Source of the DNA: Bacteroidia bacterium
Lineage (GTDB): Bacteria > Bacteroidota > Bacteroidia > UBA10329
Direction: 5' to 3'
Length of the DNA: 43,969 nt
Assembly: GCA_047611425.1 (NCBI GenBank)
Contig: JBLFWJ010000003.1
Location: 1 to 43,969 of the forward strand
Both the position numbers and the translations under genes were made by a program. How positions within the stretch are numbered: position 1 is the first letter of the stretch; each line of letters starts with the position of its first letter. Shown piece by piece: positions 38,107-43,969 of this stretch. The notes under the pieces are model-generated. The model was not told the DNA's origin. It did no database searches and was given only the letters and a program-made list of their open reading frames with translations.

Positions 38107-39099
38107 ATGAGAATTGCGATAAACGGCTTTGGAAGAATTGGAAGGGTGACAATGAGAGCAATACTTCAGCGGGGAAATATTGAGGTAGTAGCCATCAATG
38201 ACCTTACGGACAACAACACGCTGCGACACCTTTTCAAGTACGATTCCGTTCATGGTGGATTCAAGGGCACGATTGAAAACGATGAAAATTCTTTGACATT
38301 TAATGGAAATCGGGTTGCGGTTTATGCGGAAAGAGATCCGGCCAAATTGCCTTGGAAAGAACTAGAGGTCGATCTGGTATTAGAGTGTACCGGCCTTTTC
38401 CGTTCAAGAGATACGGCAGGAAAGCACATCGAAGCAGGCGCAAAACGCGTGGTGATCAGCGCACCAGCAAAAGACAAAGACATTCCATCCGTAGTTCTTG
38501 GGGTGAACGATCATTTGGTGGATCTTACCGCACCGATCATTTCCAATGCGAGCTGCACCACCAACTGTGCTGGACCAATGGTAAAAGTGTTGGAGGATGC
38601 TTGCCATGTTGAGAGCATTTTCGTCTCAACCATTCACGCGTACACTGGTGATCAGAATATTCATGATGCTCCACACTCTGATTTACGTAGAGCGCGTGCT
38701 GCTGCTCAATCCATTATCCCAACTACAACCGGAGCTGCAAAAGCCTTGGGAAGAATATTCCCACACCTAGAAGGACACCTTGGTGGAGCTGGAATTAGAG
38801 TTCCAGTTTTAGATGGTTCGCTTACAGACCTTACTTGCATTGTTCGTTCTGACATTTCGGTGGATGAGGTAAACGCACTTTTCAAAGAGCAAGCTGCAGG
38901 CCCATTAAAGGGTATTTTGGAATACACCGAAGATCCGATCGTGTCGTGCGACATTATTGGAAATCCACACTCATGTGTATTTGATGCCGGATTGACCTCA
39001 GTTATCGGTAAGATGGTAAAGGTTGTTGGTTGGTACGATAACGAGGTTGGCTACTCCAATCGTTTGGCAGATTTGGTTGAGCGATTAGCGAAGCAGTAG
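38107..39099 (+). CDS. gap: Type I glyceraldehyde-3-phosphate dehydrogenase
   Basis: INGFGRIGR, ASCTTNC (catalytic Cys), RARAAA and WYDNE. Confidence 0.96.
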   Translation: MRIAINGFGRIGRVTMRAILQRGNIEVVAINDLTDNNTLRHLFKYDSVHGGFKGTIENDENSLTFNGNRVAVYAERDPAKLPWKELEVDLVLECTGLFRSRDTAGKHIEAGAKRVVISAPAKDKDIPSVVLGVNDHLVDLTAPIISNASCTTNCAGPMVKVLEDACHVESIFVSTIHAYTGDQNIHDAPHSDLRRARAAAQSIIPTTTGAAKALGRIFPHLEGHLGGAGIRVPVLDGSLTDLTCIVRSDISVDEVNALFKEQAAGPLKGILEYTEDPIVSCDIIGNPHSCVFDAGLTSVIGKMVKVVGWYDNEVGYSNRLADLVERLAKQ

Positions 39100-39130
39100 G
39101 CGCGATTCAAAATTTGGTTGAGCCTGCAAA

Positions 39131-39216
39131 GGTCCCCCTGAGCTTGTCGAAGGGCGACCGTAGGTTGAAAGCCTGCCTTTGGATCACAAGCCGTGTTTCG
39201 ACAAGCGCAACATGAC
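39131..39216. repeat. REP-like inverted repeat pair downstream of gap
   Basis: GTCCCCCTGAGCTTGTCGAAG (39132-39152) versus the reverse complement of TTTCGACAAGCGCAACATGAC (39196-39216): 15/21 identical, core GCTTGTCGAA. Resembles the CTGAGCTTGTCGAAG repeats I recall from Bacteroidota intergenic regions. Confidence 0.7.
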
Positions 39217-39456
39217 TCCGTGTCATAGTCATACATAGGGAATCGAAGAACCCAACACAACTCTATTGTTCTAAAACACCCCGATTCTGGTTCATTTCCT
39301 TCTTTGCAAGTCCCGCCAATGGCCTGTTTTTCTCTATAGTCTCCATAATCATCCTAAAAAACACTCTGTTAATGCCTTTAAAGGCATGTAATCTCAACTT
39401 ATGGTCATTATAGGCAGAAATCTCAATATAAAACAACCAGCTTGCGATTATTTTCG

Positions 39457-39464
39457 TATATTTG
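39457..39464 (+). promoter_or_regulatory. -7 promoter box (TATATTTG) for the cdo-decarboxylase operon
   Basis: TAnnTTTG consensus, about 80 nt upstream of the TTG at 39546. Confidence 0.55.
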
Positions 39465-39545
39465 TCGCCTAACATCGTTTAGTGGTTTTATCCATATATT
39501 ATAATTGGGTTTGGGCATTGAATTAAAAAAAGGCCATAAACCGTT

Positions 39546-40100
39546 TTGAGTTCAATCCAAGAGAAGCACAAACCATATCAATCTTTAGATGGGCTAGTCA
39601 CCGCCCTCTCTGACGAAGAGCCGTCCAAATACACCGACATAATCCGTTCAATAAACTTGCCCGTAAGCGCATTTGAGAACTGTTGCTCCTGGTCGGATAA
39701 GGGCTACACCCGAAACTGCATTCTTGATACCGACAAATTTGAATTGATCCTACTTTGCTGGGAAAAAGGTCAAGTCACCCCTATCCACGATCACGGAGGC
39801 GAAGAATGCTGGGTTCATATTATTCAAGGTAAATTTCGAGAGACGGTTTATAACGTGGATGATTTAGGTGAACTAAATGTGGTTAAGACGAACATTTCAA
39901 ACACAGGTGATGTCACGTACATGTCTGATTTTATGGGCTGTCACCGTTTAGAAAACTTGTCTGATACCAGAAGTTTGTCTTTACATCTTTATGCAAAGCC
40001 AATTCGCAATTGCAATGCATTTGATGAGGGGCTTGGGAAATTCGTCCGTAAAGATTTAACCTACAATACCGTCTTCGAGTTTGAAGATGAATTAACGTAA
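39546..40100 (+). CDS. cdo: Cysteine dioxygenase (cupin, Arg-type)
   Basis: YTRN, LLCW..GQ.TPIHDH, HRLEN and SLHLY (3-His iron site, Ser-His-Tyr triad). Confidence 0.88.
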   Translation: MSSIQEKHKPYQSLDGLVTALSDEEPSKYTDIIRSINLPVSAFENCCSWSDKGYTRNCILDTDKFELILLCWEKGQVTPIHDHGGEECWVHIIQGKFRETVYNVDDLGELNVVKTNISNTGDVTYMSDFMGCHRLENLSDTRSLSLHLYAKPIRNCNAFDEGLGKFVRKDLTYNTVFEFEDELT

Positions 40101-40110
40101 TTGCAACTGT

Positions 40111-41514
40111 ATGTCTGATATAAGTAGTGACCTGGCTCTATTCAACGAGCTGGCTGAAGTCTTACTCAATGAAGAAGAGACCCATCCGGTAGCCGATCGA
40201 ATAGACTCCAACAAACTTTACGATTCTATAGACCTCTCGCTTAATGCATCTCCGATGGTTGATAGCGAGTTTAAGACAGTACTGAAAGATGTACTTGTCT
40301 CAACTCCGAAAACAGCCACGAAGCTATTCTTCAACCAACTTTTTGGAGGCCGTCAAGGAAAAGCTGTCTTAGGTGATTTACTTGCCGTGATGCTTAACAA
40401 CAGTATGTATACATACAAAGTTGCAGGCCCTCAAGTGGGTATTGAGCAGGAGATTATTAGGCAATGTTGTAATCTGGTTGGATACGGTCCTCAAAGCAAT
40501 GGCACCTTCCCTACAGGTGGTTCCATGAGCAATTACATGGCCGTGATTATGGCTCGAGATGCAAAAGACCCTGAGTGCAGAACTGCCGGAATGACAAAGC
40601 CATTGGTCATTTACACTTCCAAGGAATCACATTACTCTAATGCGAAAAATGCAAGCTTCGCTGGAATTGGAAAAAACAACATTCGATATATACAGGCTGA
40701 TTCCAATGGGCGAATGATTCCAGAGAAATTGGAAGCACAAGTCATTAAGGACCTACAAGAAGGATTCATTCCTACTTATGTAAATGCCACTGCGGGCACA
40801 ACTGTTTTAGGGGCTTTCGACCAGATAGACAAGATTGCAGACATCACCGAAAAGTATAAGATATGGCTTCATGTAGATGGCGCCTATAGCGGAAGCGTGA
40901 TCTTCAGCGATAAGTACAAACACCTTGTAAAGGGAATAGAAAGATCTGATTCATTCAGCTTCAATGCCCACAAAATGCTTGGAACACCAATGACGTGCTC
41001 TACCATTTTAGTGAAGGATAAAAAGCAGCTTCATGATTCTTTCAGCAACGAAGCCGATTACCTGTATCAAACCGATGGTGACGATTTCAATTTAGGTAAG
41101 ACCTCTTTCCAGTGCGGAAGAAGGAATGACGCTTTGAAATTCTGGACGCTTTGGAAATCTGTTGGAACCAACGGCTTAAAGCAGATTGTAGATCAGCAAT
41201 TTGAATTAGCGGATGTGGCTCGTGAATACGTGATAAATAATCCAGACTATACAGTCTATAGTTTCGATGACTCCATCTCCATCTGCTTCAATTATAAGGA
41301 CGTTGATCCGATGGACCTTTGTACGGCATTGTATGAGAATCAAATAACGGTTGTCGGTTTTGGGTCCTTTAATGAAAACACGTTTGTTCGACTGGTTACC
41401 ATCAATGCGAATAATACAAAGCAGGACATCTTGAACTTCTTTGCAGTTCTAGAGGAATTTGCTGATAAGACCCCAAGCCTGAAAACGTTAGAGGAAGTCA
41501 GGTCTTCCCTTTAA
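40111..41514 (+). CDS. Group II PLP-dependent decarboxylase, cysteine-sulfinate decarboxylase-like
   Basis: FFNQLF, GGSMSN, SHYS, TAGTTVLGAFD, WLHVDGA, NAHK (PLP Lys) and QCGRR; F-x19-S-x-Y selectivity motif. Confidence 0.85.
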   Translation: MSDISSDLALFNELAEVLLNEEETHPVADRIDSNKLYDSIDLSLNASPMVDSEFKTVLKDVLVSTPKTATKLFFNQLFGGRQGKAVLGDLLAVMLNNSMYTYKVAGPQVGIEQEIIRQCCNLVGYGPQSNGTFPTGGSMSNYMAVIMARDAKDPECRTAGMTKPLVIYTSKESHYSNAKNASFAGIGKNNIRYIQADSNGRMIPEKLEAQVIKDLQEGFIPTYVNATAGTTVLGAFDQIDKIADITEKYKIWLHVDGAYSGSVIFSDKYKHLVKGIERSDSFSFNAHKMLGTPMTCSTILVKDKKQLHDSFSNEADYLYQTDGDDFNLGKTSFQCGRRNDALKFWTLWKSVGTNGLKQIVDQQFELADVAREYVINNPDYTVYSFDDSISICFNYKDVDPMDLCTALYENQITVVGFGSFNENTFVRLVTINANNTKQDILNFFAVLEEFADKTPSLKTLEEVRSSL

Positions 41515-41547
41515 ATCATGTGCTTCTTTAACGTAACTTCGTCTCCG

Positions 41548-41937
41548 ATGAAACTGAGGCAATCGTTAAGAAATATGTCATTGCTGCTTCTAGCGGCAGT
41601 TTTTTTCTTGGCGTCTGGTGTCGTTTCAATTCACGATCATGAACATTCCCATGACCATGCAGTTTCTCATTCGCAAGAGGATGAGGCTGATGCTTGTCAC
41701 AGATCCATTTATCACGGTGACCTGAATCTTGGCTGTGAGCATAAAAGCCATGTTCATGACTCTGACCTTGATTGTCAACTCTGTGATTTCATCAACAATC
41801 GATGCGATCAAGACTTGGTTCAAGCCGAATCGCTTTTGTCATTTTCGGGTAATAATGAGAACTCTTTCTCCCCGCTTCAATCACGCTCTTTTAATCAAGA
41901 TTACGAGCACGGGCAAAGAGGGCCCCCGCGAGTGTAG
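41548..41937 (+). CDS. His-rich DUF2946/CruR-like leader protein with CxxC and C-terminal RGPP
   Basis: Hydrophobic N-terminal segment; HDHEHSHDH, CH...H....CEH..H.H and CQLC; ends QRGPPRV*. TAACTTCG (41534-41541) supports the ATG at 41548. Confidence 0.75.
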   Translation: MKLRQSLRNMSLLLLAAVFFLASGVVSIHDHEHSHDHAVSHSQEDEADACHRSIYHGDLNLGCEHKSHVHDSDLDCQLCDFINNRCDQDLVQAESLLSFSGNNENSFSPLQSRSFNQDYEHGQRGPPRV

Positions 41938-42001
41938 TTGACTAGAATTATTTCCATTTTCTAATCTCGATGATCAGAGGTCATCGACTACACTTATTAT
42001 A

Positions 42002-42571
42002 ATGAACACACTTAATATTTTGAAGTGGGCTATGCCCGCAATGGTTGTTCTTGCATTTTCCTCATGCGAGAAAGAAGACCCAATTATCCCAAACGAGGAA
42101 GAATTAATCACCACTGTTCAACTCACCCTATCTCCCAGTGGATTAGGGCCTGACGTGGTATTCGAATTTCAAGACCTTGATGGAGATGGAGGTACTGAGC
42201 CAATTATTACTGTACCAACTTCATTAATTGCAAATCACACCTACACCGGATCTATAACGTTTCTAAGCGAGATTGAAACTCCGGCAGAGGACATAACAGC
42301 GGAGGTAAATGATGAAGCCGAAGACCATCAAGTGTTCTATCAGGTTTCTGGTGGATTGAACTCAACCTTGACCTACACAGATACCGATGCCAATGGAAAC
42401 CCAGTTGGTTTGGCTATTCACCTTGAAACGGGCGATGCATCAACCGGACAATTAACGATTACACTTAGACATGAACCAGATAAATCTGCATCAGGCGTTT
42501 CCGAAGGAGACATAGTCAACGCAGGTGGCGAAACTGACATTGAAGTGACCTTCGATGTTTCGATTCAGTAG
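42002..42571 (+). CDS. Acidic lipoprotein of the type often encoded next to Bacteroidota metal TBDRs
   Basis: Lipobox FSSC; NEEELITT, DLDGDGG, DITAEV..EAEDHQVFY, D.DANGNPVGL, LRHEPDK and GGETDIEVTF. Confidence 0.75.
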   Translation: MNTLNILKWAMPAMVVLAFSSCEKEDPIIPNEEELITTVQLTLSPSGLGPDVVFEFQDLDGDGGTEPIITVPTSLIANHTYTGSITFLSEIETPAEDITAEVNDEAEDHQVFYQVSGGLNSTLTYTDTDANGNPVGLAIHLETGDASTGQLTITLRHEPDKSASGVSEGDIVNAGGETDIEVTFDVSIQ

Positions 42572-43969
42572 GGAACTCCTTCTGAATTTACTAGTGCCTT
42601 TCTCACTGGTTGGCCAGCAATGCGATATTTCCATTACTGGCCAACTGGTGGATGAAAGCACTGGCATTCCTATGTCTTATGCAACGGTTTTTATTGAAGA
42701 ATTGCAGACCGGTGTTGCCTCTGATGAAAACGGTGAATTCACCTTAAGCAACCTCTGTCCAGGTGGTTATCACATCAAGTTCAACCATATCGGTTGCGAA
42801 ACAAATACACGTTTCATTCAGCTTGAAGCTGACACCACAATACTGATCACTATGCACCATCACAACGAGTTGGTGGATGAGGTTGTGGTTCATGATCATT
42901 CCTCGGAACATGAACAGGTCGTAAGCGCTACAATCCGTTCTTCCGAGATCTCGGAAATGTCAAACCGCGACCTGACCGACCTTCTCGATCAGGTAAGTGG
43001 TGTCAGTGGTTTAAAAAGCGGTGCCGGAATTTCAAAACCGGTTGTACATGGTATGTATGGCAATAGATTGGTTATTCTAAACAATGGCATTGCACAGGCT
43101 GGGCAGCAATGGGGGAATGATCATGCGCCAGAGATCGATCCTTTTGCGGCAGGTCACATTTCAGTTGTGAAAGGTGCAGGAGCCCTCGCCTACCCTGGCT
43201 CGGCATTAGGTGGAGCCGTGCTGATAGAACCCGACCCCATGCCAACCGACCCTCATATTCATGGTCTAGTCGGTTACATTTTTCAAACCAACGGATTGGG
43301 ACATACCCTTAACGTGCGTCTTGAGCAGAATGCCAAGTGGGCAAGTTGGAGGGTGAACGGTACAACAAAACTTATTGGGGATCGAAGCGCTCCCAACTAT
43401 TTGCTTACCAATACAGGCAAACGGGAGTACGACCTTTCTGCCCAATTGGAAAAACGGTTCTCATCCAAATGGAGTGGCAATCTGTATTACAGCCTATTCA
43501 ATACACGTATTGGTATTCTAAGAGGATCCCACATTGGGAACCTCACCGATCTTGAAAATGCCATTGGCAGAGATGAGCCTTTGTTTACACGAGACACATT
43601 CTCTTATCACATTCAAGCACCCATGCAAAATGTGATGCACCATTTGGCCAAGCTCGAATTCTCAGGGATACTTGATGAACACAATAGCATTAAACTGAAG
43701 TACGCTCTTCAATACAACGACCGTAAAGAATTCGATGTAAGACGTTCCGGACGTTCAGATATTCCCGCGTTAAGCCTTGGCCAGTCTGACCATTTTATCG
43801 AAGGACAGCATCTCTATCTATCAGATAATGACTTGACCCTGAGGTCAGGTATCCAACTGCGATTGATAGACAACACCAATAATCCTGAAACGGGCGTATT
43901 GCCTTTGATCCCCGATTATCGGTCGTACGAGGTTGGCGCTTATTTCATAGCTCAGAAGGAATGGAAACG
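42555..43969 (+). CDS. TonB-dependent receptor with N-terminal CarboxypepD_reg-like domain (3' truncated), probably for a metal
   Basis: Not in the ORF track (no stop in the window). ATG 42555 reads MFRFSRELLLNLLVPFSLVGQQC..ITGQLVDESTG.PM..ATV; MHHHNELVDEVVVHDH; plug SKPVVHGMYGNR...GQQWGNDHAPEID...VVKGA.ALAY...ALGG. Confidence 0.88.
   Translation, partial: MFRFSRELLLNLLVPFSLVGQQCDISITGQLVDESTGIPMSYATVFIEELQTGVASDENGEFTLSNLCPGGYHIKFNHIGCETNTRFIQLEADTTILITMHHHNELVDEVVVHDHSSEHEQVVSATIRSSEISEMSNRDLTDLLDQVSGVSGLKSGAGISKPVVHGMYGNRLVILNNGIAQAGQQWGNDHAPEIDPFAAGHISVVKGAGALAYPGSALGGAVLIEPDPMPTDPHIHGLVGYIFQTNGLGHTLNVRLEQNAKWASWRVNGTTKLIGDRSAPNYLLTNTGKREYDLSAQLEKRFSSKWSGNLYYSLFNTRIGILRGSHIGNLTDLENAIGRDEPLFTRDTFSYHIQAPMQNVMHHLAKLEFSGILDEHNSIKLKYALQYNDRKEFDVRRSGRSDIPALSLGQSDHFIEGQHLYLSDNDLTLRSGIQLRLIDNTNNPETGVLPLIPDYRSYEVGAYFIAQKEWK

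Follow-up and report, generated by a model that had tools for sequence, protein, structure and literature searches.

The window examined here, a 43,969-nucleotide (nt) stretch of DNA from a Bacteroidia bacterium of the lineage UBA10329 (GenBank assembly GCA_047611425.1, contig JBLFWJ010000003.1), contains a small leader gene (41518..41937, plus strand) that has an RGPP motif close to its end and precedes genes for a lipoprotein and a TonB-dependent receptor. Our analysis of the junction between the leader and the lipoprotein gene points to an RNA helix, here P1, that joins the last codons of the leader to the initiation region of the next gene. We propose that P1 is an arrest-dependent unmasking device on a start without a Shine-Dalgarno (SD) sequence, in which a CruR-like leader peptide would stall its ribosome and the helix would hide part of the downstream start until that stall occurs. 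We put the probability of this reading at roughly 0.6.

From its first ATG in the list of open reading frames (ORFs), the leader encodes 139 amino acids (aa), with internal ATGs at 41548 and 41575 as possible alternative starts. The protein has a hydrophobic segment at its N-terminus, a His-rich stretch and conserved Cys and His residues, and its C-terminal end reads ...GQRGPPRV-stop. A CXXC motif (C86-Q-L-C89; 41773..41784, plus strand) lies 44 residues ahead of RGPP, whose codons AGA GGG CCC CCG (41917..41928, plus strand) form the presumed arrest site. We borrowed the register of the stalled ribosome from the CruR toeprint (PMC12992588), so that the P site contains the Pro codon 41923-25 and the A site the next one, 41926-28. 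The stop codon TAG (41935..41937, plus strand) is followed by an AU-rich spacer of 64 nt, and inspection of the sequence upstream of ATG 42002, the start of the lipoprotein gene, revealed no SD-like sequence.

An earlier sequence-only reading of this junction had described two inverted repeats, and both are present. AGTGTAGTTGA (41931-41941) is complementary to TCGACTACACT (41984-41994, positions -18 to -8 of ATG 42002) over 11 positions with one G-U, while TCGATGA (41967-73) and TCATCGA (41981-87) form a perfect 7-bp repeat; an inverted-repeat search recovered each pair independently. The fold of 41905-42030 has an energy of -33.2 kcal/mol (z -2.64), and 3/200 dinucleotide shuffles were equally stable. 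Its minimum free energy (MFE) structure is a branched three-helix fold, in which P1 is the closing helix and the hairpins P2 and P3 sit in its loop. The 5' arm of P1, GAGUGUAGU (41930..41938, plus strand), comprises the last leader codons and the stop codon and, relative to the first nucleotide of the P-site Pro codon, spans +7 to +15; the 3' arm, ACUACACUU (41987..41995, plus strand), covers -15 to -7 of ATG 42002. In the unconstrained partition function at 37°C, the 9 bp of P1 have pair probabilities of 0.62-0.99, with seven of the eight pairs of the core (41931-38/41987-94) at p >= 0.97, and the 3' arm is unpaired with a probability of about 0.01. Unpairing the 5' arm costs 8.9 kcal/mol, and the same architecture is predicted at 4, 15, 25 and 37°C.

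The two inner hairpins differ in strength. P2 (41943..41963, plus strand; 41943-47/41959-63) is small and weak and is seen in MFE structures. P3 (41968..41986, plus strand; 8 bp, 41968-75/41979-86, arms CGAUGAUC and GGUCAUCG) has a 3-nt loop and pair probabilities of 0.81-0.91 in the free RNA; it consists of most of the TCGATGA/TCATCGA stem, made two pairs longer and lacking U41967-A41987. No unpaired base separates P3 from P1, and in the modeled fold the two helices could stack coaxially. The pairs that would extend P1 to the full 11 bp (41939-41/41984-86) have probabilities of just 0.07-0.18 and are the sole pairs that clash with the short stem. The 11-bp form lies 1.2 kcal/mol above the MFE and has an ensemble share of 7%, compared with 35% for the exact combination of P1 (9 bp) and P3 (8 bp). 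The long stem of the earlier reading thus does dominate the low-energy ensemble, in a form trimmed to 9 bp. A separate 18-nt inverted repeat (41886-41903/41962-41979, 78% complementary) connects codons lying ahead of the stall site in the leader with the 5' half of P3; it is absent from the MFE structure, and could compete with P3 if no ribosome covers it.

To represent a ribosome stalled at RGPP, we forced the positions from -15 to +15 of the P site (41908-38) to be single-stranded. With this footprint imposed, P1 is lost, P3 is kept (0.85-1.0), and -14 to -1 of ATG 42002 becomes unpaired with probabilities of 0.67-0.99. Opening -18 to +12 then costs 8.3 instead of 12.1 kcal/mol, or 3.8 kcal/mol less. 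The same calculation was applied to co-directional junctions elsewhere in the genome whose spacers measure 50-150 nt, with a pseudo-footprint placed 15 nt before the stop codon. The median drop among these controls was 0.01 kcal/mol; a drop of at least 3 kcal/mol occurred in 10/362 and one of at least 3.8 kcal/mol in 4/362, which ranks the window junction within about the highest 1% of its genome by opening gain. Two suppositions of the sequence-only reading hold up in these calculations, namely that the assumed footprint of a stalled ribosome would extend over the 5' arm of the long stem and that freeing the stall region would release the start. A "terminating" ribosome state also opened P1 transiently. 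In Flavobacterium johnsoniae, an A-rich region at -14 to -11 and A-12/A-13 promote initiation, and start-proximal structure tunes translation (PMC6847099); that the 3' arm of P1 covers a region of this type is suggestive of a masking effect, not proof of it.

Several controls bear on whether the pairing at the window is a product of chance. The duplex energy of -16.9 was reached by none of 500 shuffles of the 5' arm region, and the window pairing was stronger than that of any decoy window, whether upstream (36) or downstream (60), and than pairing with the start regions of 54/54 unrelated loci. No relative of the window spacer was present among the 595 pattern stretches matched in a metagenome scan, and contigs of four DNA runs (X8, X9, X10 and X12) differ in no letter over 41700-42300, so that no natural variants were available there. 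Nine sequencing runs contain at least half of the sampled words of 41300-42700; all are DNA runs, labelled as ice metagenome, and none is recorded as RNA. Six of the nine may be where the window DNA came from.

Leaders of this kind recur across the class. Homologues were found in 16/61 related genomes and in 45/401 genomes sampled across the class, spanning 29/199 genera, and a profile search returned 64 database proteins, all annotated as "hypothetical" bar one with an unrelated enzyme name and none (0/64) with a Pfam domain. The database homologues P0052-P0054 share 64% identity with the window leader, which itself matched no Pfam or NCBIfam family. Flavobacteriales, Saprospiraceae, Chryseolinea, Ohtaekwangia and Cyclobacteriaceae contributed 39 further loci, and cultured carriers include Ohtaekwangia koreensis DSM 25262 and Chryseolinea sp. 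H1M3-3. In alignment A1, C41, C54, H56, H59, C67, C70, R115, P117 and P118 are invariant, the CXXC motif included, and in each of the first 16 loci R[GA]PP is followed by 2-5 residues and the stop codon (16/16). From 75 loci examined, we dropped 12 duplicates, 7 without the motif by the search rule and 1 without a downstream ORF, which left 55. The spacing from CXXC to the arrest motif in these 55 is always 43-46 residues (43 in 26 loci, 44 in 20, 45 in 6 and 46 in 3), within a search that permitted 38-50; the presence of CXXC in 55/55 follows from the search rule. The presumed arrest motif is RGPP in 31 loci, RAPP in 18 and KGPP in 6, and the tail past it is 1-7 residues long, mostly 2-3 (RV in the window).

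We next asked whether the helix recurs along with the leader. Direct alignment of the window spacer with those of a sister genus failed to align the helices, and loci were therefore compared by architecture, not column by column. For each locus, we summed the expected pairs between the interval from the P-site Pro codon to stop+12 and the interval from -22 to +12 of the next start, taking the best of up to three in-frame ATGs (the same rule being applied to controls) and a threshold of at least 7 expected pairs. By this measure, 25/55 non-duplicate leader loci are positive versus 43/363 controls (Fisher odds ratio 6.3; the p value overstates the significance, since the loci are related); with hand-picked starts in the first 35 loci, the helix was found in 20/35. 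A drop in opening cost of at least 3 kcal/mol was seen in 18/55 leader loci versus 10/362 controls. Clustering of the leaders at 40% identity gave 30 clusters, of which 12 contain at least one positive locus. When the first member alone was taken from each cluster, 10/30 were positive for pairing (binomial p 0.0017 against 11.8%) and 9/30 for opening gain (binomial p 8e-8 against 2.8%).

The positions of the arms, readable at p>0.5 in 26 loci, are also consistent. Measured from the P-site codon, the 5' arm has its onset at +9 in the median locus (range 0 to +12), and in 26/26 it falls within the stalled footprint. The arms are of at least 10 unrelated sequence types. In four leaders with long tails (L059, L062, L070 and L072; stop codon at +24 or +27), the onset of the 5' arm still lies in the 0 to +12 range. 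The 3' arm overlaps the AUG in 15/26. The partner of the helix is the first downstream gene of any kind, whether lipoprotein, receptor or an inserted 56-aa ORF. The last case concerns L002, L004 and L005, where two small ORFs of 56 aa and 117 aa, with no Pfam family, lie between leader and lipoprotein (about 1950-2550 in each) and the MFE structure joins the leader stop region to the AUG of the 56-aa ORF; this pairing has p >0.5 in L004 and L005, and L002 has just 5.7 expected pairs. Sister-genus loci have UUUCAUGAU and AUCAUGAAA as arms, with a palindrome UCAUGA that carries the leader UGA stop on one side and the next AUG on the other. The spacers there form two inner hairpins inside the closing helix, and compensatory changes affect 8/24 predicted pairs, all in the inner hairpins. 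Of the covariation that the sequence-only reading had pointed to as a check, the inner hairpins thus provide some and the nearly invariant closing helix none. The P1-P2-P3 fold of the window is the family layout in a shorter spacer.

These observations suggest the following mechanism. Once the leader has been read through and the ribosome has left, P1 would form, with P2 and P3 in its loop bringing the two arms together, and would hide part of the SD-less initiation region; a ribosome reading through would open the helix only in passing. A ribosome held at RGPP, with Pro 41923-25 in the P site, would cover the entire 5' arm and block P1, leaving -14 to -1 single-stranded and allowing the uptake genes to be translated. 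By analogy with CruR, binding of metal by the nascent CXXC/His region probably releases the arrest, such that metal sufficiency would shut uptake off. We infer that RGPP would arrest a Bacteroidota ribosome and that masking of -15 to -7 would lower initiation; the sensed metal and the direction of the response are likewise put forward on this footing. The logic resembles that of SecM and MifM, as the sequence-only reading had recognized while missing the closer relatives CruR and CutF, and by computation and comparison it is the best reading because the 5' arm lies in the footprint, the start opens with the footprint, and the helix recurs in homologues.

A number of points weigh against this reading. 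Its support consists of computation and comparison. The footprint of -15 to +15 is an assumption based on general properties of ribosomes. In the window, the AUG and -6 to +8 are open even in the "off" state (unpaired 0.74-0.99) and only -15 to -7 is masked; therefore, repression would depend on masking of -15 to -7 alone. At least 7 expected stop-to-start pairs are also found at 43 of all 363 co-directional junctions of the genome that have 50-150-nt spacers (11.8%), so pairing alone is not rare at ordinary junctions and a functional measure, the opening cost, was needed. Among the relatives, 30/55 loci fall below the 7-pair threshold and 18/30 clusters contain no positive locus; when 60 nt of downstream sequence was included, 23/55 show no long-range pairing and 4 pair elsewhere. 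Swapping of start regions was moderately positive, the cognate partner ranking in the top 5% in 8/55 loci with the arm fixed and in 17/55 with the start region fixed, where about 3 would be expected. In a raw duplex decoy test, only 1/35 loci, the window itself, beats all decoys on both sides. This test largely fails because start regions are AU-rich and the GC-rich Pro codons often find a better partner in decoys from the downstream coding sequence, and it was therefore replaced by the partition-function measures and genome-wide controls described above. The sister-genus closing helix is almost invariant and hence shows no covariation, and only about two independent long-tail lineages separate an arm tied to the stall site from one tied to the stop codon.

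The most serious alternative is that the leader controls its operon as CruR does, with arrest at RGPP mainly shielding the transcript from Rho-dependent or other premature termination and with P1-P2-P3 being structural, as a pause or stability element or plain translational coupling. CruR, which acts through Rho, shares the CXXC-45-RAPP layout and the downstream TonB receptor (PMC9426467) and is the one relative with such a receptor to have been dissected by experiment, a precedent that also counts against unmasking; moreover, any terminating ribosome would transiently open P1 as well, and about half of the family loci have no stall-to-start helix, which means that another output must exist there. 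However, the window spacer is 64 nt long and AU-rich, compared with the 162-nt G+C-rich spacer of CruR, and the helix is enriched about 4-fold (pairing) or about 12-fold (opening cost) over ordinary junctions, with its 5' arm inside the stalled footprint at every helix-bearing locus. We consider termination unlikely as the principal output. The two forms of control are compatible, and termination may be the output at helix-less loci.

Less probable still is that the stem has no regulatory role and reflects chance or generic properties of an AU-rich spacer, any regulation by the leader being independent of it. The comparable pairing at some ordinary junctions, the unmasked start codon, and the want of close relatives of the window spacer in which covariation of P1 could be sought all leave room for this explanation. 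It is hard to square with a duplex that no shuffle, decoy window or non-cognate start matched (0/500, 0/96 and 0/54), with an opening gain reached by only four control junctions, and with a layout that recurs in 12/30 leader clusters of differing sequence. We regard as very improbable the two-state switch put forward by the sequence-only reading, in which the long stem and the TCGATGA/TCATCGA stem are mutually exclusive and a stalled ribosome tips the balance toward the short stem. Both the 11-bp and the 7-bp stems do use TCGA 41984-87, and the small energy gap between the 11-bp form and the MFE gives the idea some footing. In the ensemble, though, the long stem is trimmed to 9 bp and the two helices coexist (p 0.62-0.99 and 0.81-0.91), with P3 branching inside P1 and the full 11-bp stem a minor species. 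The short stem also carries no information because it is equally present with and without the footprint (0.8-0.9 free, 0.85-1.0 stalled), leaving no meaningful competition, and related loci have inner hairpins within the closing helix, not competing with it. Taken together, the observation behind the sequence-only reading is partly confirmed and its interpretation partly supported, with arrest-dependent unmasking by P1 in place of a switch between hairpins.

The downstream and upstream genes provide context for what the leader may control. The lipoprotein (42002..42571, plus strand; 189 aa, LAFSSC lipobox) matches no Pfam family, and its homologues occur in 31/61 related genomes, most of them immediately behind a leader. 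The TonB-dependent receptor gene (42555..43967, plus strand) overlaps the lipoprotein stop and extends past the window end; its CarbopepD_reg_2 and Plug domains match Pfam at 3.6e-18 and 9.3e-13, and against NCBIfam it gives weak, sub-threshold matches to ZnuD, heme and copper receptors, in the plug region only. Upstream (39546-41514) lie a gene for a cysteine-dioxygenase-type cupin (CDO_I, 1.3e-23) and then one for a pyridoxal phosphate (PLP)-dependent decarboxylase (Pyridoxal_deC, 1.4e-75), a pair whose products could be hypotaurine- or taurine-like compounds. Because the decarboxylase gene ends 4 nt before the first ATG of the leader, the leader may not be the first gene of its transcript. 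No intrinsic terminator-like site was found within 41938-42001. A terminator-like hairpin of 9 pairs followed by TTTTTTTC lies at 41580-41600, inside the portion of the leader encoding the hydrophobic segment. A search of 39000-43969 on both strands gave 0 Rfam matches at E<=1.

In relatives, the gene behind the leader encodes a receptor, a lipoprotein or a CobW GTPase. The last arrangement is seen in L097 (1730-2749), L100 and L104, of Chryseolinea type, where 167-175 nt separate a RAPP leader from the next gene, which encodes a CobW/COG0523 GTPase (cobW, 5.5e-56) and not a receptor; no stall-to-start helix is predicted at these three loci. Such neighbors point to zinc-type metal homeostasis for part of the leader family. 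The KGPP leaders (L068, L069, L073, L074, L081 and L085) have the motif at the same distance from CXXC as the R-G/A-P-P leaders. In most leaders of the sister genus (L002-L014), the open frame lacks an ATG ahead of the hydrophobic segment, and a conserved T-F-V-x-V stretch is found there; a non-ATG start or a shorter protein is possible. Immediately upstream of the leader in L004 (897-1412), and at the equivalent place in L002, L005 and L006, is a lipoprotein gene with a Cytochrome_P460 match (9.9e-07) and a C-x-x-C-H motif.

Beyond the window, we tentatively suggest, at somewhat less than even odds, that metal-sensing arrest leaders (CXXC and R/K-G/A-P-P, separated by 43-46 residues) form a widespread class in Bacteroidota that annotation has missed, and that they control SD-independent initiation through a stall-site-to-start helix, one that ties bases in the entry channel of the stalled ribosome either to the start codon of the next gene or to its A-rich stretch from -15 to -7. 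The ZnuD-like receptor and the COG0523 GTPase downstream hint that the sensed metal may be zinc and not copper. If true, it would represent the first reported arrest-peptide riboregulator in a translation system that disregards SD sequences, and the CruR/CutF sensor module would have a different output in Bacteroidota, SD-less start masking. It would also offer a natural system in which to ask what renders a Bacteroidota initiation region accessible. Natural variants in which the mask is limited to -15 to -7, lies on the AUG or starts at +13 would map where the Bacteroidota 30S subunit requires a single-stranded initiation region. Dozens of "hypothetical" genes of 120-140 aa in Flavobacteriales, Saprospiraceae and Cytophagales would gain a function, and the operons behind them would be metal-regulated uptake systems without a known transcription factor.

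The closest known relatives of the window leader are the metal-sensing CruR and CutF, with SecM and MifM more distant. CruR of Bordetella pertussis (Bp2923, DUF2946) likewise has an N-terminal export or transmembrane segment, a CXXC motif, about 45 residues, R-A/G-P-P, 2-3 residues and a stop codon; in CruR itself, the spacing from CXXC to RAPP is 45, conserved within one or two, and three residues follow RAPP (PMC9426467). Both leaders precede a TonB-dependent transporter operon, which in CruR is kept on by arrest (PMC9426467). The output of CruR, however, is Rho-dependent termination in its spacer, and no start-masking helix is described for it (PMC9426467). The window leader also differs in having RGPP instead of RAPP, additional invariant Cys/His residues and a His-rich stretch, and in belonging to Bacteroidota, while CruR homologues are reported mostly in Proteobacteria (PMC9426467). 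Pfam PF11162 (DUF2946) gave no match to the window leader at E<=0.01 or E<=10 and none genome-wide at E<=10, and matched 3/16 relatives weakly (best E 0.0088). Because the CruR layout is present and PF11162 fails to match, we call the leader CruR-like rather than a DUF2946 member. RGPP and RAPP are robust arrest motifs, and in stalled CruR the P and A sites are occupied by the two Pro codons (PMC12992588); such arrest was shown for other peptides and ribosomes and is presumed for the window leader.

CutF of Rhodobacter capsulatus provides the nearest precedent for unmasking, since stall-dependent melting of a start-masking stem has been shown experimentally for CutF-cutO (PMC9973294). CutF is a small exported protein with a Cys motif that heads a metal operon, a place that the window leader may share, and it acts only in cis (PMC9973294; bioRxiv 10.1101/2025.02.05.636593). 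The CutF stem masks an SD sequence, in contrast to the helix of the window, which masks -15 to -7, and that of relatives, which masks the AUG, with no SD in play. The motifs differ as well, CxxxC with a PPP-type stall in CutF versus CXXC with RGPP here, and in the window the 5' arm lies in the last codons and stop of the leader. Copper enhances CutF stalling and induces a detoxifying oxidase, whereas the window cargo is an uptake system, for which the opposite sign would be expected. CutF-like proteins have been noted in Bacteroidota, in a figure legend (PMC9973294).

The stall-dependent opening of a start-masking stem has likewise been shown experimentally for the RAPP-type leader uDF_RQH of secDF2 (PMC10987492). 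In SecM-secA, MifM-yidC2 and uDF_RQH, a ribosome stalled at a C-terminal motif (RAGP/RAPP type) disrupts a stem that sequesters a downstream initiation signal, and a ribosome that reads through opens the stem only transiently (PMC10987492), as we propose for P1. What these leaders monitor is the Sec/YidC machinery under their own control, and what they mask is an SD sequence (PMC10987492). In the window, by contrast, the cargo is a lipoprotein and a TonB receptor and not sec or yidC, the signal is probably metal, and there is no SD.

A published catalogue, drawn from across the Gram-negative phyla, lists small ORFs that carry RGPP or RAPP and precede TonB-dependent receptor genes (PMC12992588), and the window leader fits that catalogue in being shorter than 300 aa, in carrying the motif near its C terminus and a localisation signal, and in having a TonB receptor downstream. 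The main text of that study contains neither "stem-loop" nor "secondary structure", gives no RNA mechanism for the catalogue class and tests no Bacteroidota member (PMC12992588). Our literature search found no RNA mechanism for such leaders in Bacteroidota; supplementary lists, which lay outside the search, may include the leader family. Arrest-peptide control of metal genes is dissected in two Proteobacterial cases, CruR and CutF; published work on RGPP/RAPP leaders ahead of TonB receptors goes no further than cataloguing. The principle of arrest-dependent unmasking is known from other bacteria, and what is new here is its proposed use on a start without an SD sequence.

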